A DNA stretch of 64,000 bases from Anaeroplasmataceae bacterium (GTDB taxonomy: Bacteria; Bacillota_I; Bacilli_A; Acholeplasmatales; Anaeroplasmataceae), in assembly GCA_051874255.1 (NCBI GenBank), contig JBJEFR010000113.1:421-64420 (forward strand), read 5' to 3'. The notes under the pieces were generated by a model. It saw only the letters and a program-made list of their open reading frames with translations. It searched no databases and was not told where the DNA came from. The number at the start of each line of letters is the position of its first letter. Position 1 is the first letter of the stretch. Below, piece after piece: positions 6,179-38,339 of the stretch. The position numbers and the translations under genes are program-made.

Positions 6179-6198
6179 CGAACTAGCTACTCCTTTTT
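6161..6198. terminator. Bidirectional hairpin spanning the stop codons of two convergent genes
   Basis: GGAATAGCTA (6168-6177) / TAGCTACTCC (6184-6193), 9 of 10 positions complementary, with a 6-nt loop. TTTTT follows on the plus strand and UUUUAUG on the minus strand. The plus-gene stop is at 6176-6178 and the minus-gene stop at 6187-6189. Confidence 0.55.
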
Positions 6199-6858
6199 AT
6201 TATTATTTTCATCTTTTTGCTTCTCACTTAATATTTCTTTAAGTATTTCTTCTCGCATATCACTTAAAATCTCTGAACGAAGCTTATCCTTCTCTTCTTT
6301 TAGCTTTTTATTTTTACTACTATTTAAGAATAAATTAACTGATTCAAGGATTATAATACCTACAAAGAATACAACTAATAATCCATATATTAAAGTTTTA
6401 TTTGAAGCAATTTTCCCTAGGTTTAAGAAATTAAATGTTCTTACATACTTTCCTACAAGCATATCCTCAGTAACACGTTCTATATCAACAATACCATTAT
6501 TGTTGTCTCCAAGCATCTCAAATCCATCCGTATATACTTCATTAATTCTATGAACTATATACATTCCTTCTGTTGAACCTTTAGATGAACGATATACTAT
6601 TATATCTCCTTTTTTTAATGTGCTATAATCACACTTTTTAAATATAATAGTATCCCCAGCATTAATTGTAGGCTCCATACTACTAGTAGGAACATAAGAG
6701 TATGAATATCCAAAATAGCTAACAGGCTTTGAAGTTCTAACAGCAATTACATTACATATTAGCATATATAATACTAATAATACTATAGTAATAGTTAAGA
6801 CTGTTCCGGATATTGTAAATATTTTTTTTACTTTTTTATTCATCGTCATCAGAGCCAT
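6187..6858 (-). CDS. SipW-type (archaeal/ER-type) signal peptidase I with a C-terminal TM and Lys/Glu-rich tail
   Basis: 223 aa with an N-terminal TM. Ser box PTSSMEPT, His box IVHRI, GDNN box, then a second TM (LIYGLLVVFFVGIIIL) and the charged tail KKLKEEKDKLRSEIL...KQKDENNNKKE. Overlaps the preceding gene by 23 nt. Confidence 0.8.
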   Translation of the reverse strand: MALMTMNKKVKKIFTISGTVLTITIVLLVLYMLICNVIAVRTSKPVSYFGYSYSYVPTSSMEPTINAGDTIIFKKCDYSTLKKGDIIVYRSSKGSTEGMYIVHRINEVYTDGFEMLGDNNNGIVDIERVTEDMLVGKYVRTFNFLNLGKIASNKTLIYGLLVVFFVGIIILESVNLFLNSSKNKKLKEEKDKLRSEILSDMREEILKEILSEKQKDENNNKKE

Positions 6859-9568
6859 GACTATCTATAATTTTTTTTCTCTCCTCAGGACTAAGATCAG
6901 TCCATCCATCAGCCTTTTTCTCAGCTTCCTTAGCCTGAGCCTCTAGTGCTTTACGTCTTATAGCTTCTCTTCTTCGACGTAGTAGCTCTTTAGGATCAAT
7001 ACTTTCCTCAACTGGAGTATCCTCTTCATCCTCTTCCTCATGAGCCTGAGCATTTTGACGATTTTTAGCTTCTAAGGCTCTTTGTCTTATAGCCTCTCTT
7101 CGTTTACGAAGAGCTTCTTTTATTTCGTCATCATTTGATGGAGAATTGCTAGAGATATTTTCAGTATTAGTTTGCTCCTCTGAAGCCTTCTTTTGAGCCT
7201 CAAGGGCACGACGTCTAATTATATCCCTATTACGTTCAAACATAGATCTAGAATCCATTTGAGTTGAACGCATACTTGGTTGATGAGTGCTTTGTTCATC
7301 TGAAGACTGAACGATATCAGAATCTAAACTAAATAATTCATCACGCTGTTGACTTTCAAGAGCCTCTCTTCTTCGTCTAAGCTTAGTTCTTGCATCCTCT
7401 TCCTTATGCTCATTATCTTCATCATCTTCTTCAATTACGGCTGTGCTATTTTTGTTTGCTAGAGCCTTTTGTCTAATAGCTTCTCTTCTTCGACGTAATA
7501 ATTCTTTTGGATCAAGTGTTTGTGTTGAAGTTTCTTCATCATCGTCCTCATCTTCAACCATATCATTTTCATCCATAGAATCTAAGGCCTTTATTCTTTC
7601 ATCAATGCTTCTTACTAAAGAATCATCGTCTTCATCTTCATCATCCTCTAGTTCTGCATTCTTTAAAGCTTCTTCCTTCGCTTTAGCTGCCGCAGCCTTT
7701 TGTCTAATTATTTCTCTTCGACGACGTAATAATTCCTTAGCATCAAGATGTGCCTTTTCAGCCTCAAGCTTACGCTCTTCCTCAGCAATACGCTCTTCCT
7801 CAGCAAGTCTTGCCTTTTCTGCTTCTTCACGTTCTGCCTTCTTACGTGCACGTTCCTCAGCTCTCTTTGCCTTCGCAGCATCTTGTTCAGCCTTTATTGC
7901 TGCACGACGCTCCATAAGCTTTGCCTTGGCTTCAGCCATACGAGCTTTTTCTGCAGCTTTTGCTTGATCACTTGCAGCCTTCGCGGCCTCACGTTCTGCC
8001 TTTTTACGTGCCATTTCTTCCTCATGAAGCCTTTGAGCCTCTTCTCTTTCACGAGCACGTTTTTCAGCACGTTCTGCCTTTTCCTTAGCTAATTTAGCTA
8101 AACGAGCTTCTCTTGCCTCTTGTTGACGTATCTTTTCTTCAAGCATTTGAATTTCTGCAAGAGTGTCATCATATTCCTTTTTAGTATTGTTATAATCAAT
8201 TTCTTTTAATCTTGTAACAGTTTCTAATACTTCTGATTTTTTCTTTGCTCTTTCAAGCTTAATTGGAAGTGGAACCTCATCGAAGCTACCTTCAATAGGC
8301 ATTTCAAATAATGGAGGATAAATAGAATTTAATACCTCCTGCATTTCTCTAAATACAAGCTCTAAGGAATACTTTTTCTCCATTCCTGAATTAACCTTAT
8401 CATCTAATGATTGTTGATAAAATTCTTGAGTTTTATTTAAGAAATACTCACTCATCTCAAACTTTTCAAGCTTTTGACTTGTTGGATTAAACTTATACTC
8501 ATCATCCATTTTAGAAAGCATTTTTGCCTTACGAGTAGTAAATTCCTTATATGGGGTATTTTCAGGGTCTAAATCAGTATCGCCATTAAAATATAGCATT
8601 GTACCTACAGCCTCTGACATAATACCATCAACTGTTTTAGCTAATTCATCTGGATACTTATTCTTCTTTTCCTTAACATTAACATCAAACGCTAATTCGT
8701 TATAACGATCAAGGAAAACCCAAGTATTATAACATACCTTAAACTCAGCATTCTTTAAAATAATATTAGTTTTTAAAATAGGAGGTGTTACCTCTTTATA
8801 GTTCTTTAAATCCTGCATTAATTTAGAAGAACGTAGAGTCTTATAATTTTCATGTATTGCTTGAGCTTTTTCAAATGTTTCACGGGCAGCCTTGATTTGG
8901 GCATCAAGCTGACGTTCCATCTTAACTGAAAGCTCAACCTTTACTTTAGTTTTTTCAAACTTAAAGCTATTTGTTACTGTCGTATTTTTAGTCTCATAGC
9001 TATCAAGATTCTTTTTCATAATTTGAACTCTTAATGATAAGAACTTACAAATACGATTGATTAATGTTTTTATAAACCTATTTTCATAGATTCCAATTTC
9101 ATCCTCAGCAAATGTAGTTAATAGCTTAGATGGGATTATATCTCCCTCTTCAGTAACTAACTTAATATTTTGAGTATGACTAGCCAAATGACGTACTGTA
9201 TCTGAATTAACCTTTTTTACCTTTTCCATAGGAACAACATCTTGTTCATATCGAATAGCTTTTTTAGGATCCTTTAATATTTTTGAAATACTTTTAAAGC
9301 ATGTCTCCAAAATAGGTATAAAAGACTTTTCAAATATTTTAGTCTCTCTTATTGTTTTCGAATAAACTGTACGAGAACCACCTTTAATTTGATTAAATAG
9401 CATATCACCTAAAGATGATTTTTCTCTAGCACTATCGAAGTTTTCGCTGAGAATGCGGTAAAATTCACTTACAGAATCATCATTTTCTTCTTCAGTTGTA
9501 GGAGGAATTATCTCTTCACTAGCACTTTGTAAAGATTCCTTTTCATTTACTTCTGCCACATTACTCAC
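6836..9568 (-). CDS. 910-aa cytoplasmic protein: ~470-aa globular N-domain, ER/K-rich helix, and six RRRREAIRQKALEA-type basic repeats separated by poly-acidic linkers
   Basis: Uninterrupted ORF with no TM or signal peptide. The short YENRFIKTLINRI segment resembles the N-terminal region of McrC-like partners. No PD-(D/E)xK nuclease motif was recognised. Confidence 0.6.
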   Translation of the reverse strand: MSNVAEVNEKESLQSASEEIIPPTTEEENDDSVSEFYRILSENFDSAREKSSLGDMLFNQIKGGSRTVYSKTIRETKIFEKSFIPILETCFKSISKILKDPKKAIRYEQDVVPMEKVKKVNSDTVRHLASHTQNIKLVTEEGDIIPSKLLTTFAEDEIGIYENRFIKTLINRICKFLSLRVQIMKKNLDSYETKNTTVTNSFKFEKTKVKVELSVKMERQLDAQIKAARETFEKAQAIHENYKTLRSSKLMQDLKNYKEVTPPILKTNIILKNAEFKVCYNTWVFLDRYNELAFDVNVKEKKNKYPDELAKTVDGIMSEAVGTMLYFNGDTDLDPENTPYKEFTTRKAKMLSKMDDEYKFNPTSQKLEKFEMSEYFLNKTQEFYQQSLDDKVNSGMEKKYSLELVFREMQEVLNSIYPPLFEMPIEGSFDEVPLPIKLERAKKKSEVLETVTRLKEIDYNNTKKEYDDTLAEIQMLEEKIRQQEAREARLAKLAKEKAERAEKRAREREEAQRLHEEEMARKKAEREAAKAASDQAKAAEKARMAEAKAKLMERRAAIKAEQDAAKAKRAEERARKKAEREEAEKARLAEEERIAEEERKLEAEKAHLDAKELLRRRREIIRQKAAAAKAKEEALKNAELEDDEDEDDDSLVRSIDERIKALDSMDENDMVEDEDDDEETSTQTLDPKELLRRRREAIRQKALANKNSTAVIEEDDEDNEHKEEDARTKLRRRREALESQQRDELFSLDSDIVQSSDEQSTHQPSMRSTQMDSRSMFERNRDIIRRRALEAQKKASEEQTNTENISSNSPSNDDEIKEALRKRREAIRQRALEAKNRQNAQAHEEEDEEDTPVEESIDPKELLRRRREAIRRKALEAQAKEAEKKADGWTDLSPEERKKIIDSHGSDDDE
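6935..7745 (-). repeat. Dispersed in-frame coding repeats (~40 nt cores) encoding (P)KELLRRRREAIRQKA
   Basis: Similar DNA words such as tagcttctcttcttcgacgta(g/a)ta occur at ~6961, ~7477 and ~7711. More diverged copies lie at ~7081, ~7201 and ~7361. Confidence 0.7.
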
Positions 9569-9591: not shown

Positions 9592-11154
9592 TTAGCTTAC
9601 CTTCTTTAAATCATTAATAAAATCAATTGATACCTTAAATGCATTCTTACCAAATAGCTTATCAAGTAATGTAATTAATTGATCTAGCTCATTACGTAAG
9701 AATGATAGATTTAAGCTTTCAAATTTACGTAAAATCTTGTTACATAGCATATAATCTAAACCTTGAATTTCAGTCATTCCACACGCAATGTATACAGGAA
9801 CGAATAGTTTAATTTGCTTCATAATACGGTTACCAAACGCAATTTTGAATTTTTCTTGAATAAATTCATCTAGTTTAGCAAAATTTTCCATTACACGCGT
9901 AGATAATTGAATATCTCTTTGTGCTTGTTTAAATAATTCGTCTAAATATTCAAATGACATTTGAACATTTTCAGTATATGGTGCATCTACCAATTCAGCC
10001 TTATGGTTAATTACAATAGGTAGAGCACGGTCATAAACCTTATCTGTGATTGTAAATGTTGAGTCGTCCTTATTGGCTGTACCAACAAACCAAATATTTT
10101 GATTAATTAATAGCTTACCATTAATTAATAGCTTAGGATCTAATGGATCTGTACCTGGAACCAAGTCAATTAACCATTGAGTTGGATCTGGCATTTCCAT
10201 TACAGACAAGAACTCTGCAAAATAATACTCAATACGTGCTAAGTTCATCTCATCAAGTACTATAAAGTTAGGCTTATCACTATAACCTGCCATATATACA
10301 CTTCTTAAGAAGTCTGTCTCATTAAATCTCTTAGTAAACTCATTTAAATAACCTAAAAGCTCAGCACGGTCACGCCATGATGGTTGAACAGAAATAATAC
10401 TTGTAGGCTTATTAAAGAATTTTCCCATCGCATATGGAAGTGATGTTTTTCCTGTTCCTGAAATACCTTCAAGAATAAGAACCTTAGTTGCACCCATTCC
10501 ACCAAAGAATCTCGCAATTATTTCCTTTGAATAATATAGCTTTAATTGACTTGCAGCATATCCAATAAATCTATCAATTAATCCAGGTAAATCTAACATA
10601 TCATCACTTGACATAATAGTATATTCTGGATTTGACTTATAATATGTATCAACCTGATTAAGCTTAATAAATCTTCCTTGGAATATTTCTTCTTCCTCAT
10701 CATCCTCAGGCTTACCTTGTGGGTTAAATAAGTCATCAGGATTAATATCAGTATCTCCACCAGATATTTGACTTACACGAAGTGCTAATATCTTATTCTT
10801 TTCATCAACTAAATCAATTACCTTTTTATTTAGTAATTGTACTTGGTCAACTAATTCATCTTTTTCAATTTCTCTTCTTCTAAAACGGAAATATCTCTTA
10901 AATAATACAACAATTAAAGTAACTAATAAAACCACAAAGGCAATATTAATAAACAATACTATAATATATGCAACCCAATCAGACCAATTCCAATACTGAT
11001 TATGAATACTTGCGTCCTTTAAATCTGAAATATATCCTTTAATATCTGTGTAAAAGGCATTTTTAAATGCTCTTCCGATCGTTTTGAAGAATTTTCCAAT
11101 ATTTTTAAAAATAGTTTTTAAAAATTCAGTATAATACTTCGCAAATTCCTTCAT
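9592..11154 (-). CDS. Membrane-anchored AAA+ ATPase of the AAA_5 / McrB-like type
   Basis: 520 aa. N-terminal amphipathic segment, one TM (WVAYIIVLFINIAFVVLLVTLIVVLF) followed by KRYFRFRRRE, and a coiled coil. Walker A LEGISGTGKTS, Walker B FIVLDEMNLARIEYYFAEFLS, then VGTANKDDSTF and QPSWRDRAELLGY. Confidence 0.7.
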   Translation of the reverse strand: MKEFAKYYTEFLKTIFKNIGKFFKTIGRAFKNAFYTDIKGYISDLKDASIHNQYWNWSDWVAYIIVLFINIAFVVLLVTLIVVLFKRYFRFRRREIEKDELVDQVQLLNKKVIDLVDEKNKILALRVSQISGGDTDINPDDLFNPQGKPEDDEEEEIFQGRFIKLNQVDTYYKSNPEYTIMSSDDMLDLPGLIDRFIGYAASQLKLYYSKEIIARFFGGMGATKVLILEGISGTGKTSLPYAMGKFFNKPTSIISVQPSWRDRAELLGYLNEFTKRFNETDFLRSVYMAGYSDKPNFIVLDEMNLARIEYYFAEFLSVMEMPDPTQWLIDLVPGTDPLDPKLLINGKLLINQNIWFVGTANKDDSTFTITDKVYDRALPIVINHKAELVDAPYTENVQMSFEYLDELFKQAQRDIQLSTRVMENFAKLDEFIQEKFKIAFGNRIMKQIKLFVPVYIACGMTEIQGLDYMLCNKILRKFESLNLSFLRNELDQLITLLDKLFGKNAFKVSIDFINDLKKVS

Positions 11155-11182: not shown

Positions 11183-12163
11183 TTATTCAACAGTTGAATC
11201 ATTTGAAGAATTATCTTCTCCATTTTCCTTCATCTTTTCTTCTTCACTAATACTTTCTTCTTTTTTCTTTTGTTCTTCTAAAGCTTCTTTTCTTAATTGT
11301 TCAAGTAATTCTTGCTTCATCTTTTCCTTTTCAGCCTCTAGCTCAGCTCTCATCTTTTCTTTTTCTTCTGTTGCATTTGCTGAAATCTTTTGTGTCTTAA
11401 TTGACATAACATTGAATATTACCATTACAAGTTCAAAAATCAAGAATAAGATAGTAGGTATTATTATTACAATAATAAATCCCTTTTTAGGATTAGAAAC
11501 CCATTTAATAGTTTTTCCAAATCCGCTAAGCTTTCCAGTATATACAGCCTCTATATCAGACAATGATACATTTTGTGCGTATCCCTTATAAACTAAATTA
11601 GCTGCGCCTCCATTACTTGGATCTGCAGTATAAATTGTATAATCATATTGTGTACCTAAATAACAATCTCCTTGTGTTACATATCCGGTAACAGCACCAC
11701 TACTATTCTTTACAACCTCTACGATTCTATGGGTATTTAAAAATCCAGTAGCAGCTCCTGTTGGATTTGGTGATATAGTATCCCAGAATGTAATAATATC
11801 TCCAACCTGGAATTTTGTTTTATCCTTCTCTTTTACAACCTTAACAAGAATTAAATCATTTACCGTAAATGAATCCTTTCTTGCCACAGCCCTAGATTCA
11901 TCAACAATAGCCTCATCTGTTGAACCAGGACTCATTGATTGTGACAATACTACTTCATATCCACGACCAAATATAGACTTTACAGAACGAGCGTCACTAC
12001 CTTTAATTTGTGTTATAGAAAATATCAATAACAAGAAAATAAAAATATAAAATATAGTATTTAGAGTTATATTAACAATTTTAATAATTTTATCTTTCTT
12101 ACTTAAAGGAAGCTTATCATTTTCATCATTAACTTTTACTTCATCAATAGTATTATTTTCCAT
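11183..12163 (-). CDS. Second SipW-type signal peptidase I paralog with a long insertion and a C-terminal TM plus charged coiled-coil tail
   Basis: 326 aa with an N-terminal TM. Ser box LSQSMSP, His box NTHRIVEV, QGD box, a second TM (GFIIVIIIPTILFLIFELVMVIF), then EEKEKMRAELEAEKEKMKQELLEQLRKEALEEQKKKEE. Confidence 0.7.
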   Translation of the reverse strand: MENNTIDEVKVNDENDKLPLSKKDKIIKIVNITLNTIFYIFIFLLLIFSITQIKGSDARSVKSIFGRGYEVVLSQSMSPGSTDEAIVDESRAVARKDSFTVNDLILVKVVKEKDKTKFQVGDIITFWDTISPNPTGAATGFLNTHRIVEVVKNSSGAVTGYVTQGDCYLGTQYDYTIYTADPSNGGAANLVYKGYAQNVSLSDIEAVYTGKLSGFGKTIKWVSNPKKGFIIVIIIPTILFLIFELVMVIFNVMSIKTQKISANATEEKEKMRAELEAEKEKMKQELLEQLRKEALEEQKKKEESISEEEKMKENGEDNSSNDSTVE

Positions 12164-12332: not shown

Positions 12333-13337
12333 TTAAGCTCTTTCAGTTGTGAATGATAAATTAATTGTTAATGTTTGACCCATAATTGCATCGAAGCAGT
12401 CAGCATCAAATCCTTCTAACCAGAATGTGAATCTTACACGGTAAACTAAGTTAGAGGTATTAGCAGATGTATAAATAGCGTTTGCCTCTGTACCAAATCC
12501 TGTAGTTAAAGTTGGCTCTGTTGGATATGAAACACCATTTAAAGCACCATCACTAACAGCTGATAAGTATGCATTTGCAGCATTAGTTTCACCTAATGTT
12601 TGTCCAAAATTATATGCTAGGTCATCTGCAGTATTTGAACCATTTCCAGCTTTTAATGTTACACCATTATCAAATCCAAATATGTTAAGAACTCTTTCTG
12701 AGGTACCCCATTCAACTGCGTTTTCAGGTTTTTGACCACCCTTACATAACTTTTGCATAGTATCGCGCTCTTCACTACCTTCATATACTTCAACAATTGA
12801 TCTTAATGCATTTACAGCATCAACCTTAACTGCAGTACCTCCGATAAATGAACCATCATCATAACTAAAGTCATTTAATATAACATATGATTTATCAGCA
12901 TAATCACTTTCTACGGTATTTCCAGTTGATGAGAAATAAACACTTTGAGAAGGTCCACTTGTACATACATATAAATCAAATTGTAAATACATTGATGATG
13001 CACCAGTACCTGCCTCAACTATTGCATTATTAGAGAATTTCTTAAATGCAGTAGGTGTTGCAACTGGAGTAGTTGCATAATCATATGTTAGTGGTTGTAG
13101 TTCTAATCCTGTAAGAGCTTGATTTGAACTATCTGTAAGGATTGTTACATCTGAACTAAATGTCTTTCCATCAGTTGATAGTAATACTCCGTTTGTTCCA
13201 CCTTGAACGTTAACCTTTAAATCAGCTGTTGCAGTAGCGTTCATTGTAAACCAAGCGTAAGTTGTAGTTCCTAATGCTACGACTGCAAATGCCATAGATA
13301 GGATACTCATCAATAATTTTCTTGAAATTTTTTTCAT
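12333..13337 (-). CDS. TasA/camelysin-like secreted protein with a SipW-dependent-type signal peptide
   Basis: 334 aa. Signal anchor ends in GTTTYAWFTMNA (compare GGTWAAFND in B. subtilis TasA). C-terminal motif FWLEGFDADCFD and terminal strand TLTINLSFTTE. Strong AAAGGAG RBS. Confidence 0.65.
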   Translation of the reverse strand: MKKISRKLLMSILSMAFAVVALGTTTYAWFTMNATATADLKVNVQGGTNGVLLSTDGKTFSSDVTILTDSSNQALTGLELQPLTYDYATTPVATPTAFKKFSNNAIVEAGTGASSMYLQFDLYVCTSGPSQSVYFSSTGNTVESDYADKSYVILNDFSYDDGSFIGGTAVKVDAVNALRSIVEVYEGSEERDTMQKLCKGGQKPENAVEWGTSERVLNIFGFDNGVTLKAGNGSNTADDLAYNFGQTLGETNAANAYLSAVSDGALNGVSYPTEPTLTTGFGTEANAIYTSANTSNLVYRVRFTFWLEGFDADCFDAIMGQTLTINLSFTTERA

Positions 13338-13460: not shown

Positions 13461-14903
13461 TTATTCCCAAATTGTTACAAAAGTCCATTTTAAGTCTTCT
13501 GGATTATCTGAACGAGCCCATACCTCTTCATCAAAATTCCATGGGGTAATTTCACCATTAGCGTCTAGCTTACCCCAGCCTTTAAATTTGTGGATTCCAT
13601 TTATTGAATAGATGTCCTTGATTGGACTTTGTTCACTGATTTTTTGACCTTGTATTTGATGAACAACCTTTGTTCCTGAATTAATATACACACCTTGCTC
13701 TTCATCATATACCTTGAATCCTGAATTTACTACCTCTCCTGTTTCAGGATTTGTAATCATGTATGTAAGTTCAACCGGTTCCGTTTGAATTTCAAATGAA
13801 GTGAAAGCCATCTTCATTTGAATTGTTTGATTCCAAATTGAATCCATACAGTCAGCATCCCAACCTTCAATCCATAGGAATATATTCATCTTAGCTGTAC
13901 CATTTTGACCATAATTATTTTCTTTGTTTAGATCAAGAATAGTAGCTCCCTCAAGAGTATCAAAACCCTTATAGGTTTGTGGAATTGACGAATAAGATAT
14001 TTCATTTAATACCTGACCTGTTTCATATCCACGAACATTATTGTAGTATGAAAATCCTGCATTTTTATTAAAATCATATCTCGCACCTATTGGCCCAACA
14101 TAATAATCTTCTGTTAAATCGGTTGCATAAGATCCAACTCCTGTACCAATCTCATAGATTTTGTAATTATTGTCTCTTACACCATTGTTTGTGATGCAGG
14201 TTGAAAACCTTATTGCATCAGACGCAAGAGTTTTGAATTCAAAATCAGGTTGGTTATCTTCAGATTTATCATATCTGAATAGCTCTCCTGTTAGGGGATT
14301 ATATGTATCAAATGAACCTGCTAATCTATTAGGGAAACCAATAGAATCAGCATTTTTAACAGTCAATTCAGTCTTGGGAACATATTCTCCATTGTAGACT
14401 AATTCTCTACTTGAAAAATATACCCTTCTATCTGACGCATCATCAGCCATGAAATACAAATCTAAATTAATAAATTCAGTATCTCTAACTGTCTTAACCT
14501 GGTTAAATAAATTTTTGAAATTTTCTCCATCTGTTGAGGTAACAGGCTCAAGAGACATTTTTTGAGCAAATTCTTCTTCATAGTTATCTGCATCTAGGTA
14601 TTCTGTTGTACCTGATGCATTCTTAAATGTGTAGCATGGCTCTTTATCTATATAACCAATACCATATCCATTAGCCTTAGCCAATATAGCCACCTTTATT
14701 TCTTTAGCAGATAACTGGTTTTTATAGTTTTTACCATCAATAGATATTTTTACACCATTCGCAGAATTAACCTCTAATTCCATATCATCAAACCAAGCGT
14801 TTGTGTTAAGCTTAAACCACGCAAATGTAACAGTCCCCGCTACTACTATAAGTAGTAATAGTGAAAATAAACTAATATAAAGTTTTTTAGACAAATTGAT
14901 CAC
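13461..14903 (-). CDS. TasA-like secreted protein with a C-terminal Listeria-Bacteroides-repeat-like extension
   Basis: 480 aa with a GTG start. Signal anchor ends in GTVTFAWFKLNT. Motif LWIEGWDADCMD, then IQMKMAFTSFE. The C-terminal ~110 aa ends in HKFKGWGKLD...PWNFDEEV...TFVTIWE. Confidence 0.6.
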   Translation of the reverse strand: MINLSKKLYISLFSLLLLIVVAGTVTFAWFKLNTNAWFDDMELEVNSANGVKISIDGKNYKNQLSAKEIKVAILAKANGYGIGYIDKEPCYTFKNASGTTEYLDADNYEEEFAQKMSLEPVTSTDGENFKNLFNQVKTVRDTEFINLDLYFMADDASDRRVYFSSRELVYNGEYVPKTELTVKNADSIGFPNRLAGSFDTYNPLTGELFRYDKSEDNQPDFEFKTLASDAIRFSTCITNNGVRDNNYKIYEIGTGVGSYATDLTEDYYVGPIGARYDFNKNAGFSYYNNVRGYETGQVLNEISYSSIPQTYKGFDTLEGATILDLNKENNYGQNGTAKMNIFLWIEGWDADCMDSIWNQTIQMKMAFTSFEIQTEPVELTYMITNPETGEVVNSGFKVYDEEQGVYINSGTKVVHQIQGQKISEQSPIKDIYSINGIHKFKGWGKLDANGEITPWNFDEEVWARSDNPEDLKWTFVTIWE

Positions 14904-14930: not shown

Positions 14931-15034
14931 TTAAAAATAAAAGTTGCCACCTTTATTTTTACAAGAATGACAACTGGCTATCCTTTTTGGACCCTGTAGC
15001 TTTGCGTCACTAGATTACTCTAGTTTTGCCAACT
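14931..15034 (-). promoter_or_regulatory. c-di-GMP-I (GEMM-I) riboswitch candidate with intrinsic terminator, in the leader of the 480-aa TasA-like gene
   Basis: Minus-strand RNA: AGUUGGCAAAACUAGA-GUAA-UCUAGUGACGCAAAGCUACAGGGUCCAAAAAGGAUAGCCAGUUG, then GUUGUCAUU...GGUGGCAAC-UUUUAUUUUU. It shows the GCAAA, GNRA-capped hairpin and ACGCAAAGC signature of GEMM-I. Confidence 0.78.
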
Positions 15035-15049
15035 ATTAACACATAATGT

Positions 15050-15077
15050 ATTTTACCACATTGCCAAATGTTGTCAA
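15050..15077 (-). promoter_or_regulatory. Sigma-A type promoter driving riboswitch copy 1
   Basis: Minus strand reads TTGACA - 16 nt - (TGg)TAAAAT, ending about 15 nt upstream of the aptamer. Confidence 0.65.
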
Positions 15078-15086
15078 TAAATAATT

Positions 15087-15827
15087 TTAGATTATCTTTT
15101 CATCGTATGCACTAAATGACATACCTATTTTGATAGAACCACCACTAATTGAGTTTTCTCCTTCATCAGTACAATCAAGATCTTCACCATCAAGCCACAT
15201 TATAATAGAATATTTTATAACATCACCTGGCTTAAAGGTTTTAATTGTTTCTGTAAAAATAGTCATATCAGTAAAAGTTTTCACTGTATGAAGCTTTTCA
15301 AAGGTATAATGAGTTTCGTTTGCTGGATCTTCATACTTTTTATATACTATTCCTTCAGTATCATCACCCTCGAAAACCCAAAATCTTACGGCACTATCAA
15401 CATTTCTAGTAACTGAAGTAATATTTAGTGTTGCATCAATATTACAAACCTCAGTTCCTTCATTCTTTAAATAAAATGTATATCCTATATAATCCCCAGC
15501 CTTAGATTCATATCTACCACCACCGCTATTAATTATTGGATATTTATTAACGCTTCCCATTTCTATAGGCTGAGCATTAGCTAAAAGATTTCCAGTTAAA
15601 ACCTGTCTTGCTCCATTAGGATCATCTATTTTTTCATATAAACTAATACCAATTCCACTTAAATCATCAGGAACGCTAATAGTAAATCCTCCTGTGCTCG
15701 TACCATAGAAGGTTACAACTCCAATGGTTGCTGAAAGTAAAAGGAAAATTATTAGTAATATTATTAAGATTTTCTTTTTTCTAAACAATGATACTGATTT
15801 ATCAGTAACTACATCTCTTTTACTCAT
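15087..15827 (-). CDS. TasA-like secreted protein (divergent signal-peptide junction)
   Basis: 246 aa with a signal anchor ILIILLIIFLLLSATIGVVTFYGTSTGGFT. FYLKNEGTEVCNI segment, motif MWLDGEDLDCTD, and terminal strand SIKIGMSFSAY. Confidence 0.55.
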   Translation of the reverse strand: MSKRDVVTDKSVSLFRKKKILIILLIIFLLLSATIGVVTFYGTSTGGFTISVPDDLSGIGISLYEKIDDPNGARQVLTGNLLANAQPIEMGSVNKYPIINSGGGRYESKAGDYIGYTFYLKNEGTEVCNIDATLNITSVTRNVDSAVRFWVFEGDDTEGIVYKKYEDPANETHYTFEKLHTVKTFTDMTIFTETIKTFKPGDVIKYSIIMWLDGEDLDCTDEGENSISGGSIKIGMSFSAYDEKII

Positions 15828-15842
15828 AACTTTCCTCCTTCT

Positions 15843-15948
15843 TTAAAAAATAAAAGTTGCCATATCCTTAATATGATACAGCAACTGGCTATCCTTTTGG
15901 GACCCTATAGCTTTGCGTCACTAGATTACTCTAGTTTTGCTTTAACCA
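15843..15948 (-). promoter_or_regulatory. c-di-GMP-I (GEMM-I) riboswitch candidate with intrinsic terminator, in the leader of the 246-aa TasA-like gene
   Basis: Minus-strand RNA: GCAAAACUAGA-GUAA-UCUAGUGACGCAAAGCUAUAGGGUCCCAAAAGGAUAGCCAGUUGC, then an 11-bp terminator stem GUUGCUGUAUC/GAUAUGGCAAC followed by UUUUAUUUUUU. The aptamer core is nearly identical to the copy at 14972-15034. Confidence 0.78.
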
Positions 15949-15949
15949 T

Positions 15950-15978
15950 ATTATAGAATAATTTATTTTGATAGTCAA
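15950..15978 (-). promoter_or_regulatory. Sigma-A type promoter driving riboswitch copy 2
   Basis: Minus strand reads TTGACT - 17 nt - TATAAT, immediately downstream of the stop of the GGDEF-EAL gene. Confidence 0.7.
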
Positions 15979-15984
15979 TTATAA

Positions 15985-17679
15985 CTATTCTTCTTTGTCA
16001 TCATCTTCATCAGCTTCATCTTCATCTTCTTCCTCATCTTCATCAGCATCAGCCTCTTGAGGAGAAGGTGTTTTCTTATCATTATCTTCTTCATTAGCTA
16101 CATTTGTATCATCTTGTGATGTATTTACATCATCTTGTGTTGATGTATTTGTATCATCTTGTGATGTGTTCACATCATCAACTGTAGCTGCAGCATCATT
16201 TTCTTCATTATTAGCTGTAGGTGTATCCTCTACTTGTGAAGCCTCAGTCTTTGGTTTAGCTTCTTCGGCCTTCTTAGTATTTTCCTCCCACTTACGATAT
16301 CTAATGAAATCTAAAACCTCTGTCTCTGGCATAGGCTTTGAATAATAATAACCTTGACCATAAATAATATTTTGTGATTTAACATAGTCGACATTTTCCT
16401 TAGTTTCAATTCCCTCTGCAACAACTAAACGTTTTGTTAATTCAGCTGATTCAGTAAGCATTTTTACAAACTTTTCTCTTATTTCATCATTAGAATTTTC
16501 ATCAGCTAAGAATTTTCTATTAAGCTTAATCATGTCGATAGGTTCTTTTTGAATACGAGTTAATGTTGAATAGTCAAGCTCAAATCCATCAACAGCTGTC
16601 ATAAATCCGAAATCTCTTAGCTTCATTAGATTTTGCTTTACATTATCAACCTTTTCAAACATTGCAAATCCGCCAATTTCTAATATAACACTTTTTGGAT
16701 TTACTGATGCTTTTTTAGCAACTAAAATCAAATCATCAGCTAATGATTCATAGGTTAACTGCTTAATAGATAGGTTTAAGGAAATATGAGCATTTCCTTC
16801 CTCCATAAGCTTTTGAACATCACTTAGCATCTTTAATGCTAAAGTAAGTCCCCATTTACCTACCCAATATATATCACCTGATTGATCCATAATATTAATG
16901 AATTCTGCTGGTGGTAGAATACCACGCTTTGGATGGTTCCAACGCATTAGGGCTTCAAATCCATAAATATTATTGCTTTCAAGATTCATAATTGGTTGAT
17001 AATATAGGCAGAACTCTTTATTAGCAATAGCCTGCTTAACCTCTTTGAAGAACTTAAAGTTAGAAGTTTCTTCCTTAGTTAATGTATTATAGAAGACAGT
17101 ATATTTTGAACCGCCTTCTCTTTTTGAGATATATGTTGCAAGCTCAAGATTTTTAATTAAATCTGGAACAGTTTTACCACATGAAGGATATAAGCATACT
17201 CCTGCACTAGCTGTTAAAACGATTGACTCACTTGTAGATACAAACATTTTTTGTTTGACATCATTTAATAATGCCTCTGCAATCTTACAAGCATTTTCAT
17301 AGGTTAAATTTTCTTTAATAAAGATTAAAAACTCGTCATTGTTATACTTAGAAATTACAGTACGATATGGTAATCTTTTAGAAAATCGGTGTGCTAATTC
17401 CTGTAGGAATTCATCACATTGTTCTCTACCAAAAATTTCATTAATATTTGTAAAGTTATCTATATCAATATATATAAGTGTAAAATCACCAAATTTTCCA
17501 ACCTTTTTAATATATGAAGCGATAGCCTTATTCATATCATTTTTGGAAATAGTTTTATCATTAAGAACTTCATTTTCCTCTTTAAATCTCTTTACATTAT
17601 ATTTTATTAGGAAAAAGATTAGTACTGATATTAAAATTACTACTACTATAGCCACACATGCTAGGATTATTTCTTTCAT
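15985..17679 (-). CDS. Membrane-anchored GGDEF-EAL protein, degenerate in both domains, with an acidic repetitive C-terminal tail
   Basis: 564 aa with one N-terminal TM. The GGDEF position reads NNDEF. The EAL domain keeps FEALMRW, EGIE and QG, but has EIGG where E-x-T-E is expected and VDGFELDYS where DDFGTGYS is expected. The tail is rich in D/E/T/N. Confidence 0.75.
   Translation of the reverse strand: MKEIILACVAIVVVILISVLIFFLIKYNVKRFKEENEVLNDKTISKNDMNKAIASYIKKVGKFGDFTLIYIDIDNFTNINEIFGREQCDEFLQELAHRFSKRLPYRTVISKYNNDEFLIFIKENLTYENACKIAEALLNDVKQKMFVSTSESIVLTASAGVCLYPSCGKTVPDLIKNLELATYISKREGGSKYTVFYNTLTKEETSNFKFFKEVKQAIANKEFCLYYQPIMNLESNNIYGFEALMRWNHPKRGILPPAEFINIMDQSGDIYWVGKWGLTLALKMLSDVQKLMEEGNAHISLNLSIKQLTYESLADDLILVAKKASVNPKSVILEIGGFAMFEKVDNVKQNLMKLRDFGFMTAVDGFELDYSTLTRIQKEPIDMIKLNRKFLADENSNDEIREKFVKMLTESAELTKRLVVAEGIETKENVDYVKSQNIIYGQGYYYSKPMPETEVLDFIRYRKWEENTKKAEEAKPKTEASQVEDTPTANNEENDAAATVDDVNTSQDDTNTSTQDDVNTSQDDTNVANEEDNDKKTPSPQEADADEDEEEDEDEADEDDDKEE
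16105..16180 (-). repeat. Imperfect 21-24 nt tandem coding repeats (DDVNTSQ/DDTNTST units) in the acidic tail
   Basis: The word atcatcttgtg recurs at 16108, 16129 and 16153. Confidence 0.6.
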
Positions 17680-20138
17680 TAATTCCCACCTGCTTTTCCA
17701 CTTGTTTTATTTTCACTTGCAACTTTACCAGTTTTTAATAATGCAAAAGCATCTTCCTTTGATAAAGCTTTACCTATATAGTATCCTTGGATAATATCGG
17801 CACCAAACTTTGCAACGATATCCTTTTGAATCTTAGTTTCTACACCTTCACAAATTACCTTATCTCCTAATTCCTTAGCAAGAGATATAATTTTTGAAGT
17901 TAAAACCTTACTAAAACGGTCAGTTTCAATATGCTTAATAAATTCCTTATCAACCTTAATAGTATCAATAGGTAGCTCCTTTAAATACAACATTGATGAA
18001 TATCCAGTACCAAAGTCATCAAGATGCACAGAAATACCACGATTCTTTAAAATCTTTAATTTCTCAACAACAGTTTGGAAGTTTTCCATTAGGAATGTTT
18101 CTGTTACTTCCACTGCAATAGAACCTGGCTGAAGATTATTCTTTTCAAATTCATCAAGTAAATCAGCAACGAATCCAGCTTGAACGATTTGAGCAGGACT
18201 GACATTTACTGATATATGAATATCATATTGTTCCATTTCTTTTGCTGTTTTTAAAACATCCTTAGTAATAAAATTACCAACATCGATAATAAATCCATTT
18301 TTTTCAGCTAACTCAATATAAACCTGTGGAGATATTCCCGCATATTTTGGATTATTCCATCTTAATAAAGCTTCAAATCCACAAACTCTTTCTTGATTGA
18401 TTTCATATTGTGGTTGATAGAACATTACGAATTCGTTTTTAGCAATAGCTTGCTTCAAATCCTCTTCCATTTCTCTATCCTTTTGGGCCGCATTTTCTAG
18501 ATTAGTATCATATTTAGCAACCATTCTACCTGCAGAATTTTTAGCACGCTCACAAGCTATTCTTAGCTTATCAATTAGCATATCGTGAGTTGTTTCACAA
18601 TCTCCATCCATATCAGATCCTAAAAGACCTACAGCAGGACGAAGCATTATTTCATTATTATTTATTTCTATAGGTGCCTTTAATTCATTAATTAATGTAT
18701 CTGTTTTCATCATCGCATCAGCTTCATTATGCTCTGTAGTTAATAGTACAAACTCATCTGCACCTATATGAAATACATGGTATCCTTCATATATTTGATG
18801 TAATACATTAGAGAAAAATGCAAGTACATCATTTCCGGCCTTAAATCCTAATAGGGTATTTACATTTTTAAATCCCTTTAGATTAGTAATTAAAAGTAAA
18901 TATGGATCTCCTACAGCCTTATATTTAGCTTTAGCTTCTCTATAACATCTATCAAGAACAATAGCATTATCATCAGCTGTTACAGCACTCTTTGTAGAGC
19001 TTGAAATTAGTATTTGTTCATTATTATATTCTTCAGTTATTACTCTTCCTACGATAGAATAATCACCGCTTCTTTTTAATGACATAAATTCAAAATAAAC
19101 ATTCTCTTCTACCTTTTCACCATTTTCATCTACTGGTGGTACATATTCAAGTACAAAGGCTTTTTGTGCCTTTATTGCATCAACAAGATTAATTCCCTTT
19201 ACTAAATTAAGCTCCGCAAGGGACTTAATAGGAACAATATGATTTGGAAATGCTACTTTAAATGATTTATTATATTTGACAATACGACCATTACTCTTAG
19301 CAATCAAAACTATATTAGCTGTTTTGGTATTTACACCTGCATCAATTCCTGATGATTTAATTAATTTCTTAATTAGTAGTATAAGTACCACTGCAAATAA
19401 AATTAATACTAATGAAATTCCACCAATATACGCAAATCTTAATTTTGAAAGATTACTAGAAAATTGAGTAACTAACGTTTTATCAACAACTCTAACTAAA
19501 TTAAATCCCATGAAATCTTTTATCGCCATATATGCGTCTATTTCATTATTATCACCAACTAAAATATCTAATTCTATTGTAAATACTTCATCAGATGCTA
19601 ATCCTTCAATACATTTATTTACTAAAGCCTCATCATTTGATTTACTTAAGACAGTTATAAAGTTGTTTGTTAAATAACTAGGATTTGATCCTAAAATAGT
19701 ACCATTATCAGCTACAATAAGAATAGGATTAATGTTTTCTAAGCTACAATCTATAGCAACCTTATCTAATAGTTCATTTAGAGGAACCTTTACTACCTGT
19801 ATATCTTTTTTTAGGTATAAAAAATAACCTGATCCTGATTCTTCAACATCACTTGCACTAGCGATTATGTAATTTGATTCACCAAAGACATCAATATCAA
19901 CATTAGCAGACTCAAATTTAGTAGAATCCTCTAAAAATAAAGCATTGTAATTAGATATTTCTGAATATATCCATGATTCGGCAGTACTTAAATGACTAGA
20001 TGTTTGAGCAAGCGCATTATCATTAGAAATAGTTCCGACACCTACTTCATAAGTCACTGTACATCCCAAGAAACATAAGAATAAAAATATTAAGATTATT
20101 ATATACGTTTTTAAGTCCTTAACACGCAACTCGCCCAC
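17679..20138 (-). CDS. Sensor GGDEF-EAL protein with a canonical EAL phosphodiesterase domain and a degenerate GGDEF (GADEF)
   Basis: 819 aa. N-terminal hydrophobic segment, a ~220-aa extracytoplasmic region, then a TM. The EAL motifs FEALLRW, NVS, EVTE, DDFGTGYS, KVDK, EGVE and QGYY are all present. The track start is GTG at 20138; a TTG at 20129 preceded by AGGTGG is an alternative. The stop overlaps the next start as TAATG. Confidence 0.8.
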   Translation of the reverse strand: MGELRVKDLKTYIIILIFLFLCFLGCTVTYEVGVGTISNDNALAQTSSHLSTAESWIYSEISNYNALFLEDSTKFESANVDIDVFGESNYIIASASDVEESGSGYFLYLKKDIQVVKVPLNELLDKVAIDCSLENINPILIVADNGTILGSNPSYLTNNFITVLSKSNDEALVNKCIEGLASDEVFTIELDILVGDNNEIDAYMAIKDFMGFNLVRVVDKTLVTQFSSNLSKLRFAYIGGISLVLILFAVVLILLIKKLIKSSGIDAGVNTKTANIVLIAKSNGRIVKYNKSFKVAFPNHIVPIKSLAELNLVKGINLVDAIKAQKAFVLEYVPPVDENGEKVEENVYFEFMSLKRSGDYSIVGRVITEEYNNEQILISSSTKSAVTADDNAIVLDRCYREAKAKYKAVGDPYLLLITNLKGFKNVNTLLGFKAGNDVLAFFSNVLHQIYEGYHVFHIGADEFVLLTTEHNEADAMMKTDTLINELKAPIEINNNEIMLRPAVGLLGSDMDGDCETTHDMLIDKLRIACERAKNSAGRMVAKYDTNLENAAQKDREMEEDLKQAIAKNEFVMFYQPQYEINQERVCGFEALLRWNNPKYAGISPQVYIELAEKNGFIIDVGNFITKDVLKTAKEMEQYDIHISVNVSPAQIVQAGFVADLLDEFEKNNLQPGSIAVEVTETFLMENFQTVVEKLKILKNRGISVHLDDFGTGYSSMLYLKELPIDTIKVDKEFIKHIETDRFSKVLTSKIISLAKELGDKVICEGVETKIQKDIVAKFGADIIQGYYIGKALSKEDAFALLKTGKVASENKTSGKAGGN

Positions 20139-25021: not shown

Positions 25022-28000
25022 TCATTCTTCATCACTACCAAAAATACCTTTATAGGTAGCTAAAGCATTATAGCTCTCTGTTGTCTTAATTCCCCAATTA
25101 GAAGAATCAACATTCTCACCCTCAGTAATAACAATACTTAGGGAAATATTTTGAGTAATGATTGATGAATATGGAACAAACGCACCACTTTCAGATTTAC
25201 CTGGCTCTATGGAAGAATCAATTTGATTTTGCTTATCAGTATATGATGAAGCAACATAAGCACTTGGAATACTTACATAGAAATAGAAATATCCTTGTGG
25301 CAGAGTTTGAAGCTTATACCTTAATGTATACATCTTTAATCCATCGCTTGATAGACCTGCATATGTAGCATAAGCACTTATTTGCTTATATCCTACATAT
25401 TCATTAAGTCTATTATACATATTTTCATAAATTGTTAAGTATATATCCTCAAGAGTAAAATCTGCAGGAGTATATATTGTTACATTAAAGTAAACATTAT
25501 TTGTTGAATCAATTATTGAAATATGAAAATATCTAATGTTTCCAGCACCCTCTGTATCTCCATGTAATGCTGATTCACTCATTACAAGATATGAAACATA
25601 CCAGAAGTGTCCATCAAGTGGAGTACCTATATAATCCATATATAATGATTGATTCTTAGTAGGATCTCCAGCAAATGAAGCAACCTTATATCCATTAAAT
25701 CCAGCATATCCTTCTTCTGCTATGCTAGTTGTGTTAGTAGCCGTATATGTAGTAGGTAATGTAGATGTATATGTATATAGCTTAGCATCCTCATTAGTAC
25801 CATCATAATCTGTAGTATAAACAGCTTGCCATTCATAGTTAGCATTTAATTTAACTAAGAATACGCTAATTTCACCACTTGCGTTTTCAAATGGAACATA
25901 TAATAATGTTTCGCTAGCAATATGGCTAGATAAAATATTAGTATCATATGTTGTTTGTGAAGAACCATATGTAGTTAATTTGGTAATAGTAGTATATTGA
26001 TATATTTGAGCATAATCATTAATTTTAAATGTTGGAGCATAGTATGATAAATCAGAATCAGCAACAGTACCAATTGTATAATAATCAGTTATATCAGTAC
26101 TATCACTTCCGTTATTATATACTATTCCATCTGTACGAATATTAATTGATCTTGATGATGAATTAAATACATCTGAATATAATACATCATTACTACTATA
26201 ATAATTTGGATCTCCATCGGTATTTGGTATCAACGCTATCTCTGGAAGCATAACTGTTGCGGTATTACCAATAACAATAGATTGATCTAGGAAGGTAAGT
26301 TGTTTTAATAAAGCATCTCTTGAGAATAGCTTTTCAACAACAAGCTCTGGGAATTCATAATATCTTTCATATTCTTCTCCTTCCCAAATTCCTGTATTTT
26401 GATATGTATAAACAAATGTATAGATACCTGGCTCATTATTATCTGATACTGTAACAGTCATACCAGCATAAGTAACATTACTTGCAGCATCTGTTGATGA
26501 TTTATCTAAATTGATATCAAATATTACATTCTCACCTAATGTATAGAAATTTGATAATACATATTTAATTCTATATTGTGGTTCAATACCACGGTTGAAA
26601 GCTACACCAATCTTCATATCGTCTGCTAAAGACCAGCTATATGAACCACTAGTTTCTGTGCAAGTGTCATCGTCAAGAGAATATGTAAATGTACCACTGC
26701 TTAATGTTGAGACAACATTACCATCTGCATATAACGATGCATATGTTGATCCTTCGTCAAAGAATTGTGACTCTTTAAGAACATGAACATATTCCATAGT
26801 ACTTCCAGATTCTGAAGTAACATTGTATGTTACAGTATATGTCATTAATCCCTTTGTATCAATAGATTTTTCAGCATATATACTAACTATTGCGTTATCA
26901 GAAATTTCAAATTTATATAGATAGAATGATTCAGAGGTTAATAGTGTTAAATCATCACTATTATAAGCCATACCAAATGGAATAATACTTGTTACAATCT
27001 TATTACTATTAATAGTATCCTTTAAATCTTCACCATCAAAATAGAACTCAACAATAGCATTTTCAGTATTAGCATTTTTAACTGCTGTTACACTTGCGAT
27101 ATCGCCATATACATTAACAGTAAACACTACATCACCTTGTGGCATTGACTTATCAATGTCAATAACTATTGTAGCTATACCATTTTTAATAATTCCATTA
27201 TTCTTAGCATTTACATTAAACATCCATGTATTATTTTCACCATCACCATTTACAGTTACAAATTGCTTCATATCCATACCATTAGGTAATGATGCTGTAT
27301 ATGTTAAGGTAACAGTATCTCCACTATACTCAATAACAGCCTTATCAATAGTAAGTGTTGGTGAAGTAGCTTCAACTAAAATGAATATAACATCATAATC
27401 TGTATAAATAGTTGTATCCTCGGCATATATTCTTATAGCCTTACTTGCAGTTATAGTATTTCCATCAATAGTCTTATTACTTAATGATATTATAGTACTA
27501 TTATTTCCTACACTAGCATTATCTGCAAGTACAATTTTATTAATATCAACAGATGATACTGATTTTAAATAATCAAACATACTCGAAGATACATAATATG
27601 TAATTTGATTTTCAGTTATTTGCTCTGAAGAAGAGTTAATTATTATATCATTATATTCTAAATCCAATGTAAAAATTGAAGTTGATATTGATAACAATAA
27701 TTGCTTCATATTTACATAAAATTGATAATTAATTGAATCCTCAGTTCTATTATTAGGATTATCTTCTGTTCCACCACGCCAAGTAGATGATAATTCCTCT
27801 GTTAGTACATATTCACCTAATTCTTCATTAACATCATAGTATGTATCCATACTAGATAATTCTAGATTATCTGGAATGAATATACCATTTTTAATACCCT
27901 TACTTGAAGCAAGTGCATAAATACCATAACCATCAATATTAGATGTTAATCCTAAATGCTGCATAAGCTCAAGGAATTTGTCTGAGTCTATAGATGTATC

Positions 28001-36571: not shown

Positions 36572-36588
36572 AACATGCCCCTCCCATC

Positions 36589-37707: not shown

Positions 37708-37729
37708 ACTATTACCCCTTTCTTTTATA

Positions 37730-38329: not shown

Positions 38330-38339
38330 ATTATCCCTC

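Follow-up and report, generated by a model that had tools for sequence, protein, structure and literature searches.

Positions 9592-11154 (minus strand) of a 64,000-nucleotide (nt) stretch of DNA from an Anaeroplasmataceae bacterium (contig JBJEFR010000113.1 of assembly GCA_051874255.1; the whole stretch is referred to hereafter as the window) encode a protein that is, with high confidence, the McrB-like GTPase of a CoCoPALM system. The protein is a member of the NxD/CoCoNuT-like clade of McrB GTPases, its DNA-reading N-terminal domain replaced by a membrane module, and its gene is probably co-transcribed with those of a McrC homologue and two SipW-type signal peptidases. We propose, at a probability of roughly 0.6, that this McrB-like system serves the SipW-dependent biogenesis of a surface fibre or adhesin structure. 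An original prediction, made from the sequence alone, had described the open reading frame (ORF) as a McrB-type ATPase with an N-terminal amphipathic helix, a single transmembrane (TM) anchor and a coiled coil, and named neither a partner gene, nor an operon, nor CoCoPALM; the ORF and all of the motifs quoted for it are present in the sequence. The protein is identical to "hypothetical protein ACI35W_07155" of an Anaeroplasmataceae metagenome-assembled genome (NCBI).

Assignment of the core to the McrB family

Relatives were gathered by a scan of 185,579 species-representative genomes, which placed them in at least 597 species-level genomes; 80 loci were retained, drawn from Acholeplasmatales, Anaeroplasma, Izemoplasmatales, Erysipelotrichaceae and many Clostridia (including Ruminococcus, Lachnospiraceae, Eubacterium ruminantium FB3002, R. 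flavefaciens and the cultured Acholeplasma granularum ATCC 19168). Family alignments comprised 16 homologues for the GTPase (8000 were found by database search), 20 for the McrC-like protein and 130 for the SipW set, and the AlphaFold2 (AF2) model of the GTPase was built from the 16-sequence alignment (mean predicted local distance difference test score [pLDDT] 79, predicted template modelling score [pTM] 0.67).

Searched against all PDB sequences, the family profile returned only three significant matches, all of them E. coli McrB (6hz4, 6ut6 and 7vsr; E 5e-6 to 1.2e-5), and no other P-loop family, which together with the gene downstream (see below) supports the McrB-type class originally proposed. 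The aligned region spans ~175 residues (McrB 176-350) and takes in Walker A, Walker B (DEMNLAR here vs DEINRAN in McrB, within "IIDEINRAN"), the N..D signature and the arginine region. A single-sequence phmmer search of the GTPase against PDB sequences gave noise only, and AAA_5 itself, the Pfam family named at the outset, stays below threshold (19.7 bits vs 22).

The catalytic elements are readily located: Walker A at G230-T237 (GISGTGKTS, fitting GxxGxGK[ST]), Walker B at D301-E302 (LDEMNLAR, fitting the McrB-type DExN.A / DExN-AR), the signature N361-x-D363-D364, and arginines R376 and R443. The motifs that had been quoted begin at residues 86 (KRYFRFRRRE), 228 (LEGISGTGKTS), 257 (QPSWRDRAELLGY), 297 (FIVLDEMNLARIEYYFAEFLS) and 357 (VGTANKDDSTF). 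Residues G230, G233, G235, K236, T237, D301, N304 and R307 are invariant across the 16 homologues, as are N361, D363, R376 and R443. The signature reads N361-K-D363-D364, position 364 being Asp, Glu or Gln in the family; the NxD clade is defined by N-x-D, usually followed by Glu or a second Asp (PMC11090510). The HMMER alignment to the E. coli NTAD is ungapped, so the signature is equally readable as NxxD and a "deletion" cannot be demonstrated from it. The PADLOC model PDC-M26A also matches the GTPase (E 1e-35); the same model matches soluble coiled-coil relatives and hence marks a CoCoNuT-like GTPase clade (we found no mention of "PDC-M26" in the literature searched). No DNA- or RNA-binding domain was found on the GTPase with Pfam, and the protein is expected to use GTP.

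A structural comparison with McrB and MoxR had been suggested as a check. Foldseek with the full-length model gives a broad AAA+ group among its top 50 (MCM, dynein, MoxR/RavA, BchI, NorQ and BrxL), an outcome that neither refutes nor specifically supports McrB. One could take the protein for a MoxR/GvpN/RavA-type AAA+ chaperone that matures a membrane or secreted complex and is unrelated to McrBC, given the AAA+ clade fold shared with MoxR, RavA, GvpN and NorQ (Foldseek E 1e-5 to 1e-4), the weak AAA_5 match and the presence of 2r44, RavA, CbbQ, NorQ and BchI at the top of the Foldseek results. We rejected this assignment, which we consider highly unlikely, because the profile matches McrB and no MoxR protein in the PDB and because the partner is a DUF2357 protein with no VWA partner in evidence; the DExN-AR and N-x-D signatures, too, are those of McrB.

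A membrane module at the N-terminus

The amphipathic N-terminal helix and the single TM anchor of the original prediction are both borne out. Residues ~59-85, preceded by a WNWSDW aromatic belt, are the sole strongly hydrophobic segment of the protein, with no 19-residue average above 1.6 elsewhere on the Kyte-Doolittle scale (the scale used throughout). The region upstream is cationic, with 8 Lys/Arg in residues 1-35 and 10 in the 58-residue N-terminal tail; in relatives this helix is more hydrophobic and less charged, and in some it is scored as a second TM segment. AF2 predicts a helix over residues 2-50 (pLDDT 55-75), one continuous helix over residues 57-130 that comprises both the TM segment and a stalk, a disordered linker at residues 129-152, and a confident AAA+ core with helical lid (pLDDT ~90) from residue ~160 to 520. 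The linker varies from 0 to >100 residues among homologues. The entire architecture is retained in homologues down to 30% identity, and it is therefore not a chance feature.

The coiled coil fared less simply. A heptad-like helix of ~4 heptads is confirmed at residues 96-129, with the same register in 12 of the 16 homologues and an invariant L108; the hydrophobicity of its a/d positions is not significant in single sequences when shuffled against composition. The pattern thus cannot be told from composition sequence by sequence, and we refer to the segment as a heptad-like stalk that may form a coiled coil.

The anchor is predicted to be N-out/C-in, placing the motor domain in the cytoplasm, as had been proposed. 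This orientation follows from the charges flanking the TM helix (-2 N-terminally, +5 C-terminally), from the need for cytosolic GTP, from the signal-less partner, and from relatives in which the topology is made explicit: P0130, P0134 and P0137 carry a cleavable-looking signal peptide, an ectodomain of ~170 to 290 residues, a TM helix and a basic cluster (RRRKKK) right before the same GTPase, and DUF2357 genes follow those of P0134 and P0137. The C-flank is positive (at least +2) in 21 of 25 single-TM representatives. The N-terminal amphipathic helix may sit at either leaflet of the membrane or inside an oligomeric bundle.

We surveyed topology in the best 150 representatives at 50% identity. 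At least one TM segment precedes the GTPase in 82 of them (one in 25, two in 17, three in 2, four or more in 38), and 67 have none, these being mostly long coiled-coil proteins; membrane anchoring is thus recurrent among the closest relatives. The multi-pass variant, with at least four predicted TM segments before the same GTPase (38/150, within P0152-P0265), is absent from the main text of Bell et al. (PMC11090510).

Bell et al. likened the N-terminal module of CoCoPALM GTPases to FtsB (PMC11090510). A TM helix and coiled coil of FtsB/DivIC type fused to an NTPase could denote a cell-division or morphogenesis factor, and the host belongs to the wall-less Anaeroplasmataceae. We could not reproduce the homology: the N-terminal 160 residues of five homologues gave no DivIC/FtsB Pfam match at E <= 10, at HMMER/Pfam sensitivity, the module matching only generic TM-helix families below their cutoffs. 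The coiled coil of FtsB is periplasmic, whereas the stalk described here lies on the cytoplasmic side of the membrane. The cluster, moreover, is found in walled Clostridia also, with no division genes in its conserved neighbourhood, and a role in division is accordingly very improbable.

A McrC homologue without a nuclease

The decisive context for the McrB assignment is the gene 24 nt downstream, whose 910-residue product contains DUF2357, the McrC N-terminal domain (37.1 bits vs a cutoff of 23.3, E 2.7e-9; present in 17/20 homologues). Conservation is confined to residues ~46-300, where H127, L128, P146, L150, Y161, E162, N163, L169, P263, T267, K272, N273 and W283 are invariant across the 20 homologues; no column is conserved after W283. 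Five of the 20 are only 363-390 residues long and have no charged tail, most of the others carrying a tail of variable character. No nuclease family was matched by Pfam in any of the 20, and since the shortest homologues have 363-390 residues and nothing is conserved past ~300, we conclude that the protein has no PD-(D/E)xK nuclease. Matches obtained with a full-length McrC profile were low-complexity charged proteins only and were set aside.

The tail here is a charged helical region of ~450 residues, with about six ELLRRRREAIRQKALEA-like repeats separated by acidic linkers. The Arg-rich motif of this tail, (D/E)xKELLRRRREAIRQKALEA, present in about six copies within nt 6836-8191, recurs in locus L001 (82% identical) and is not shared by more distant homologues; it could form a helix that binds proteins, lipids or nucleotides.

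SipW-type peptidases and a conserved gene order

Two signal peptidase I paralogues flank this pair. Both are of the ER/archaeal (SipW) type, paralogue 1 being divergent, and both keep the S-M-x-P serine motif and an H-R motif (SQSMSP and THRI in paralogue 1); the gene for paralogue 2 shares 23 nt with the end of the McrC gene. Of 130 SipW homologues, 124 have a pair of TM segments and then a charged tail in the cytoplasm, with a median length of 45-56 residues and ~45% Lys/Arg/Asp/Glu. A regular-expression count of the catalytic Ser/His motifs (70/130) is an undercount, the inspected misses keeping the SM motif and a downstream His. All four core proteins thus present charged helices to the cytoplasm. 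The peptidase tails were not found in the main text of Bell et al., who named these systems (PMC11090510).

To describe synteny we searched the window proteins against all ORFs of the 80 loci and took counts from loci with enough flanking sequence. A near-universal order emerges in Acholeplasmatales, Clostridia and Erysipelotrichaceae: GGDEF/EAL gene, one to four secreted proteins, SipW, McrB-like, McrC-like, SipW. The McrC-like gene lies no more than 1 kb downstream of the GTPase gene in 66/70 loci, a SipW gene immediately upstream in 51/65 and another downstream in 43/57; of the 30 loci with complete flanks, 29 have secreted-protein genes and 20 have GGDEF/EAL genes at a distance of up to 10 kb. 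The SipW family has 133 members in 76 of the 80 loci, two copies being the usual number. When the 2360 ORFs of these loci were clustered without supervision, no conserved neighbour families emerged beyond McrC-like, SipW, two secreted-protein families and GGDEF/EAL.

Secreted proteins and their predicted control by c-di-GMP

Three genes for secreted or surface proteins precede the first peptidase gene. In two of them, products of 334 and 480 residues, the cleavage context is A|WF, with A28, W29 and F30 invariant in 39 homologues and A28, W29, G309 and D311 invariant in the secreted-protein family. The SipW cleavage site of TasA is GGGTWA/AF, that is, A|AF (PMC10269814), and these two of the three upstream proteins resemble it in having an aromatic P2, Ala at P1 and Phe at P2'. 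By motif and context they are SipW-type substrates. The product of the first gene, of 246 residues, has no AWF cleavage motif; it is related to the 334-residue family (hhalign probability 96.6%, E 6.5e-10), and a WLEGxDxDC module is common to all three. The AF2 model of the 334-residue protein is all-beta (pLDDT 78.6, pTM 0.78). The signal-peptide motif, beta-rich fold and gene context together suggest a putative fibre subunit. A TasA homologue label was considered for these proteins and not adopted, as sequence, profile and fold searches gave no significant relative.

The same genes appear to be under direct control of cyclic di-GMP (c-di-GMP). Two c-di-GMP-I riboswitches are present, each lying between a sigma-70-like promoter (11/12 match) and a secreted-protein gene, and the 3' strand of each P1 (AGTTGC or AGTTGT) doubles as the 5' arm of a terminator hairpin, behind which comes a T-run. 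With that strand serving both structures, ligand binding should prevent termination, and the riboswitches are accordingly predicted to be ON switches. Riboswitches precede the first secreted-protein gene in loci L009, L015 and L019 too (53-64 bits; in tandem in A. granularum), and in related loci further copies follow the second SipW gene, ahead of more AWF proteins. Control by c-di-GMP riboswitches and GGDEF/EAL proteins is typical of adhesion and biofilm loci. Our literature search gave no paper connecting c-di-GMP riboswitches with either SipW/McrBC-like clusters or the surface structures of Acholeplasma, and the link between c-di-GMP and CoCoPALM clusters is new here.

Two tandem GGDEF-EAL genes lie directly upstream of the riboswitches. 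In the 564-residue GGDEF-EAL protein the GGDEF motif is degenerate (NNDEF), the EAL motif is intact and the DDFGTG-like motif reads DGFELD, as judged by eye; instead of a cyclase, the protein may be a phosphodiesterase or a receptor for c-di-GMP.

This context bears on whether the system is one of defence. A membrane-tethered anti-phage or anti-plasmid device, derived from CoCoNuT-like type IV restriction and sensing nucleic acid or infection, with SipW and the secreted proteins as effectors or as an unrelated operon, would accord with the homology of the GTPase core to McrB and PDC-M26A, with its close relatives among soluble coiled-coil CoCoNuT-like proteins and with the place given to CoCoPALM in a type IV restriction census (PMC11090510). 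Yet neither the McrC homologue nor the conserved neighbours supply a nuclease or nucleic-acid effector, the GTPase has no DNA- or RNA-binding domain, and the McrC homologue and both SipW proteins have no PADLOC match; the SipW and secreted-protein synteny is fixed across class-level distances and the genes are under riboswitch and GGDEF/EAL control. The protein is also highly conserved and abundant in gut Acholeplasmatales, one GTPase sequence being present on at least 1000 contigs. The lack of an effector, the fixed secretory synteny and the c-di-GMP control lead us to judge defence unlikely. The non-restriction role anticipated in the original prediction is supported instead, by the nuclease-less McrC and by the SipW, secreted-protein and c-di-GMP context.

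Relation to described systems

The locus fits CoCoPALM, a system type already named, by computation only, in which signal peptidases accompany a McrB-like GTPase with TM segment and coiled coil and a McrC that has a coiled coil of its own (Bell et al., eLife 2024; PMC11090510). That paper devotes one paragraph to CoCoPALM, reports no experiments and defers analysis (PMC11090510); we found no later paper on the system. The window shares with the published description an NxD-type GTPase with TM and helical segment, a DUF2357 McrC with a coiled-coil extension, and signal-peptidase genes. The c-di-GMP riboswitches, the GGDEF/EAL genes, the secreted proteins bearing a TasA-type cleavage motif, the charged tails that the peptidases extend into the cytoplasm and the abundance in wall-less Acholeplasmatales go beyond the main text of Bell et al.

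With E. coli McrBC the system has in common the AAA+ GTPase core and a DUF2357 partner encoded immediately downstream. It differs in having a membrane anchor instead of an N-terminal DNA-binding domain, a partner without a PD-(D/E)xK nuclease, an invariant Asp at N+2 followed by Asp, Glu or Gln, and a secretory rather than a restriction-modification context. The closest relatives of the GTPase domain are found in CoCoNuT CnuB/CnuC and PDC-M26, as cores of 40-47% identity within coiled-coil proteins of 700-870 residues, and coiled-coil fusions occur on both partners there as here. The CoCoNuT GTPases, however, are soluble proteins with long N-terminal coiled coils, and they pair with nucleases or HEPN domains (PMC11090510), whereas the present protein has a TM anchor and a four-heptad stalk, and no nuclease accompanies it.

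The operons tapA-sipW-tasA of B. subtilis and sipW-bsaA-bsaB-bsaC of C. perfringens resemble the locus in placing a dedicated ER/archaeal-type peptidase gene beside those of its secreted substrates, and in the cleavage context. These matrix-fibre operons have no NTPase or McrC-like gene; the present locus has two peptidases with long charged tails and direct riboswitch control, and the homology of its substrates to those of the tasA and bsa operons is not shown by sequence or fold.

A proposed role in surface-structure biogenesis

How the parts might work together can be set out as a sequence of steps, which we offer tentatively, as a mechanical model that is possible rather than probable. High c-di-GMP would switch on the secreted subunits. 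A hexameric GTPase ring would sit at the membrane, where the McrC homologue would activate it through its DUF2357 domain, as happens in McrBC, and would be tied to both peptidases through cytoplasmic charged helices. GTP hydrolysis would then gate or drive the steps in which SipW substrates are processed, anchored or polymerised to give a surface fibre or adhesin structure, with conformational change transmitted across the membrane by way of the stalk and TM helix. Such a scheme presupposes the use of GTP, a physical complex of GTPase, McrC homologue and SipW, and a role for it in fibre assembly. It might be speculated that six amphipathic helices and six TM helices form a GTP-gated transmembrane bundle.

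The same components could be read as a regulatory GTP switch rather than a motor, one that responds to nucleotide or energy status (alternatively to c-di-GMP, by way of the Arg-rich tail of the McrC homologue) and licenses SipW activity or tail signalling without doing mechanical work on the substrates. Charged helical cytoplasmic segments on all four core proteins could assemble into a signalling complex, TasA-type assembly is not known to require an NTPase, and the C-terminal region of B. subtilis SipW is reportedly needed for a signalling role of that protein. Against this, strict conservation is seen both in the residues with which an AAA+ ring hydrolyses nucleotide and in the McrC activator domain, which fits repeated hydrolysis cycles over a simple switch, and no c-di-GMP-binding domain was detected with Pfam. 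We regard the switch as rather unlikely, and as a sub-variant of the favoured explanation, not its true opposite.

Several observations weigh against a McrB-like system dedicated to surface-fibre biogenesis. By sequence, the GTPase core stands nearest to CoCoNuT-like defence candidates. McrB is absent from the Foldseek top 50 (the long N-terminal helices of the full-length model may be why), a trimmed DUF2357 core profile has no match in the PDB, and 3 of 70 loci lack an adjacent McrC gene. For the secreted proteins, sequence searches of Pfam, NCBIfam and the PDB gave no match, and Foldseek hits to the 334-residue model are insignificant (FimA, E 0.16; the Sulfolobus thread 7pnb, E 0.26; the TasA-like pilus 7ueg, E 4.2). 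In four Clostridia loci no riboswitch was detected, GGDEF/EAL-related genes being adjacent there. The 58-residue tail, with its 10 Lys/Arg, is an unfavourable N-out substrate. Finally, the assembly of TasA-type fibres in Bacillus is not known to involve an NTPase, and the need for a motor is thus not obvious.

McrBC is the standard example of a restriction motor that depends on GTP, and if this nuclease-less membrane derivative does serve SipW-dependent biogenesis, it would represent a defence motor recruited to cell-surface biogenesis, or the reverse. The broader generalization, that CoCoPALM is an unrecognised class of prokaryotic surface-filament machinery, we put forward only as a conjecture that we doubt more than we credit: McrB hexamer and McrC "camshaft" would have been exapted into a GTP-driven platform for SipW-processed subunits, switched by c-di-GMP and working even in wall-less Mollicutes. 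The system is widespread, being found in abundant human and animal gut Acholeplasmatales and in rumen Clostridia among the genomes counted above, and all of its components are annotated "hypothetical protein"; it could explain adhesive surface structures of wall-less bacteria. The riboswitches offer an experimental handle on the timing of expression, and A. granularum and E. ruminantium are cultured hosts.

Table 1. Positions of the CoCoPALM genes, their domains and associated control elements in the window (aa, amino acids; E, E value; bits, bit score)
Feature	Coordinates	Strand	Evidence
McrB-like (NxD-type) GTPase, membrane-anchored, 520 aa	9592..11154	-	ORF with ATG start
Cationic amphipathic N-terminal helix, aa 1-35	11050..11154	-	Hydrophobic moment up to 2.26; AF2 helix
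Single transmembrane helix, aa 59-85	10900..10980	-	Kyte-Doolittle maximum 3.26; position kept in 16/16 aligned homologues
Basic cluster KRYFRFRRRE, aa 86-95, predicted cytoplasmic side	10870..10899	-	Sequence and alignment
Heptad-like helical stalk, aa 96-129, continuous with TM helix	10768..10869	-	AF2
Acidic linker, variable length, predicted disordered, aa 130-157	10684..10767	-	pLDDT <50 at aa 129-152
GTPase core and helical lid, aa 158-520	9595..10683	-	Invariant columns; McrB alignment; pLDDT ~90
McrC homologue, 910 aa: DUF2357 core aa ~46-320 (nt 8609-9433), charged tail aa ~460-910	6836..9568	-	Pfam
SipW-type signal peptidase I paralogue 1: two TM (aa 32-50, 230-248), 78-aa charged cytoplasmic tail	11183..12163	-	NF046067 SipW E 7.7e-13, below curated cutoff
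SipW-type signal peptidase I paralogue 2: two TM (aa 20-38, 160-178), 45-aa charged cytoplasmic tail	6187..6858	-	TIGR02228 75.3 bits vs 51.85
Secreted beta-rich protein, 334 aa, cleavage context GTTTYA/WF (A|WF)	12333..13337	-	Sequence; AF2
Secreted beta-rich paralogue, 480 aa, GTVTFA/WF (A|WF)	13461..14903	-	Sequence; alignment
Related 246-aa protein, N-terminal signal-anchor, C-terminal WLEGxDxDC module	15087..15827	-	Alignment; present in 48/80 loci
c-di-GMP-I riboswitch 1 (RF01051)	15877..15951	-	57.7 bits vs gathering 35; promoter-like site 15950-15978; overlapping terminator 15855-15886
c-di-GMP-I riboswitch 2 (RF01051)	14966..15040	-	55.8 bits vs gathering 35; promoter-like site 15050-15077
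Two tandem GGDEF-EAL genes	15985..17679, 17679..20138	-	EAL E 1e-53, 2e-63; GGDEF E 4e-20, 2e-10

Further surface genes and general features of the window

A second surface module occupies nt 25022-39062 (minus strand). Three small proteins with SipW-type N-termini (38340..39062, with TSYAWF; 37730..38329, with ITYAWF; and 36589..37707) are followed by a 3849-residue protein (25022..36571, minus strand) that has no Pfam domain. Homologues of this giant protein lie directly beside the McrB-like gene in loci L014, L016 and L022, where the McrC gene is not adjacent, and near it in L009 and L008. In the A. granularum locus (L019, 13928-16969) the second SipW gene is followed by a c-di-GMP-I riboswitch and then by two more AWF proteins; one of these has 767 residues with many W/Y/G-rich repeats resembling carbohydrate-binding repeats, and is a candidate tip adhesin.

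The window is of low GC content (~30%). From ~6 kb onward almost all 2-kb bins have a negative GC skew, and the long ORFs of the window (1-64000) are nearly all on the minus strand; this fits one replichore whose genes are strongly biased to one strand, the usual pattern of Firmicutes and Mollicutes. An S10-Clostridia ribosomal-protein leader (RF03136, 60772-60871, minus strand, 39.8 bits) is located upstream of the ribosomal protein operon (~46-60 kb), an ordinary arrangement.

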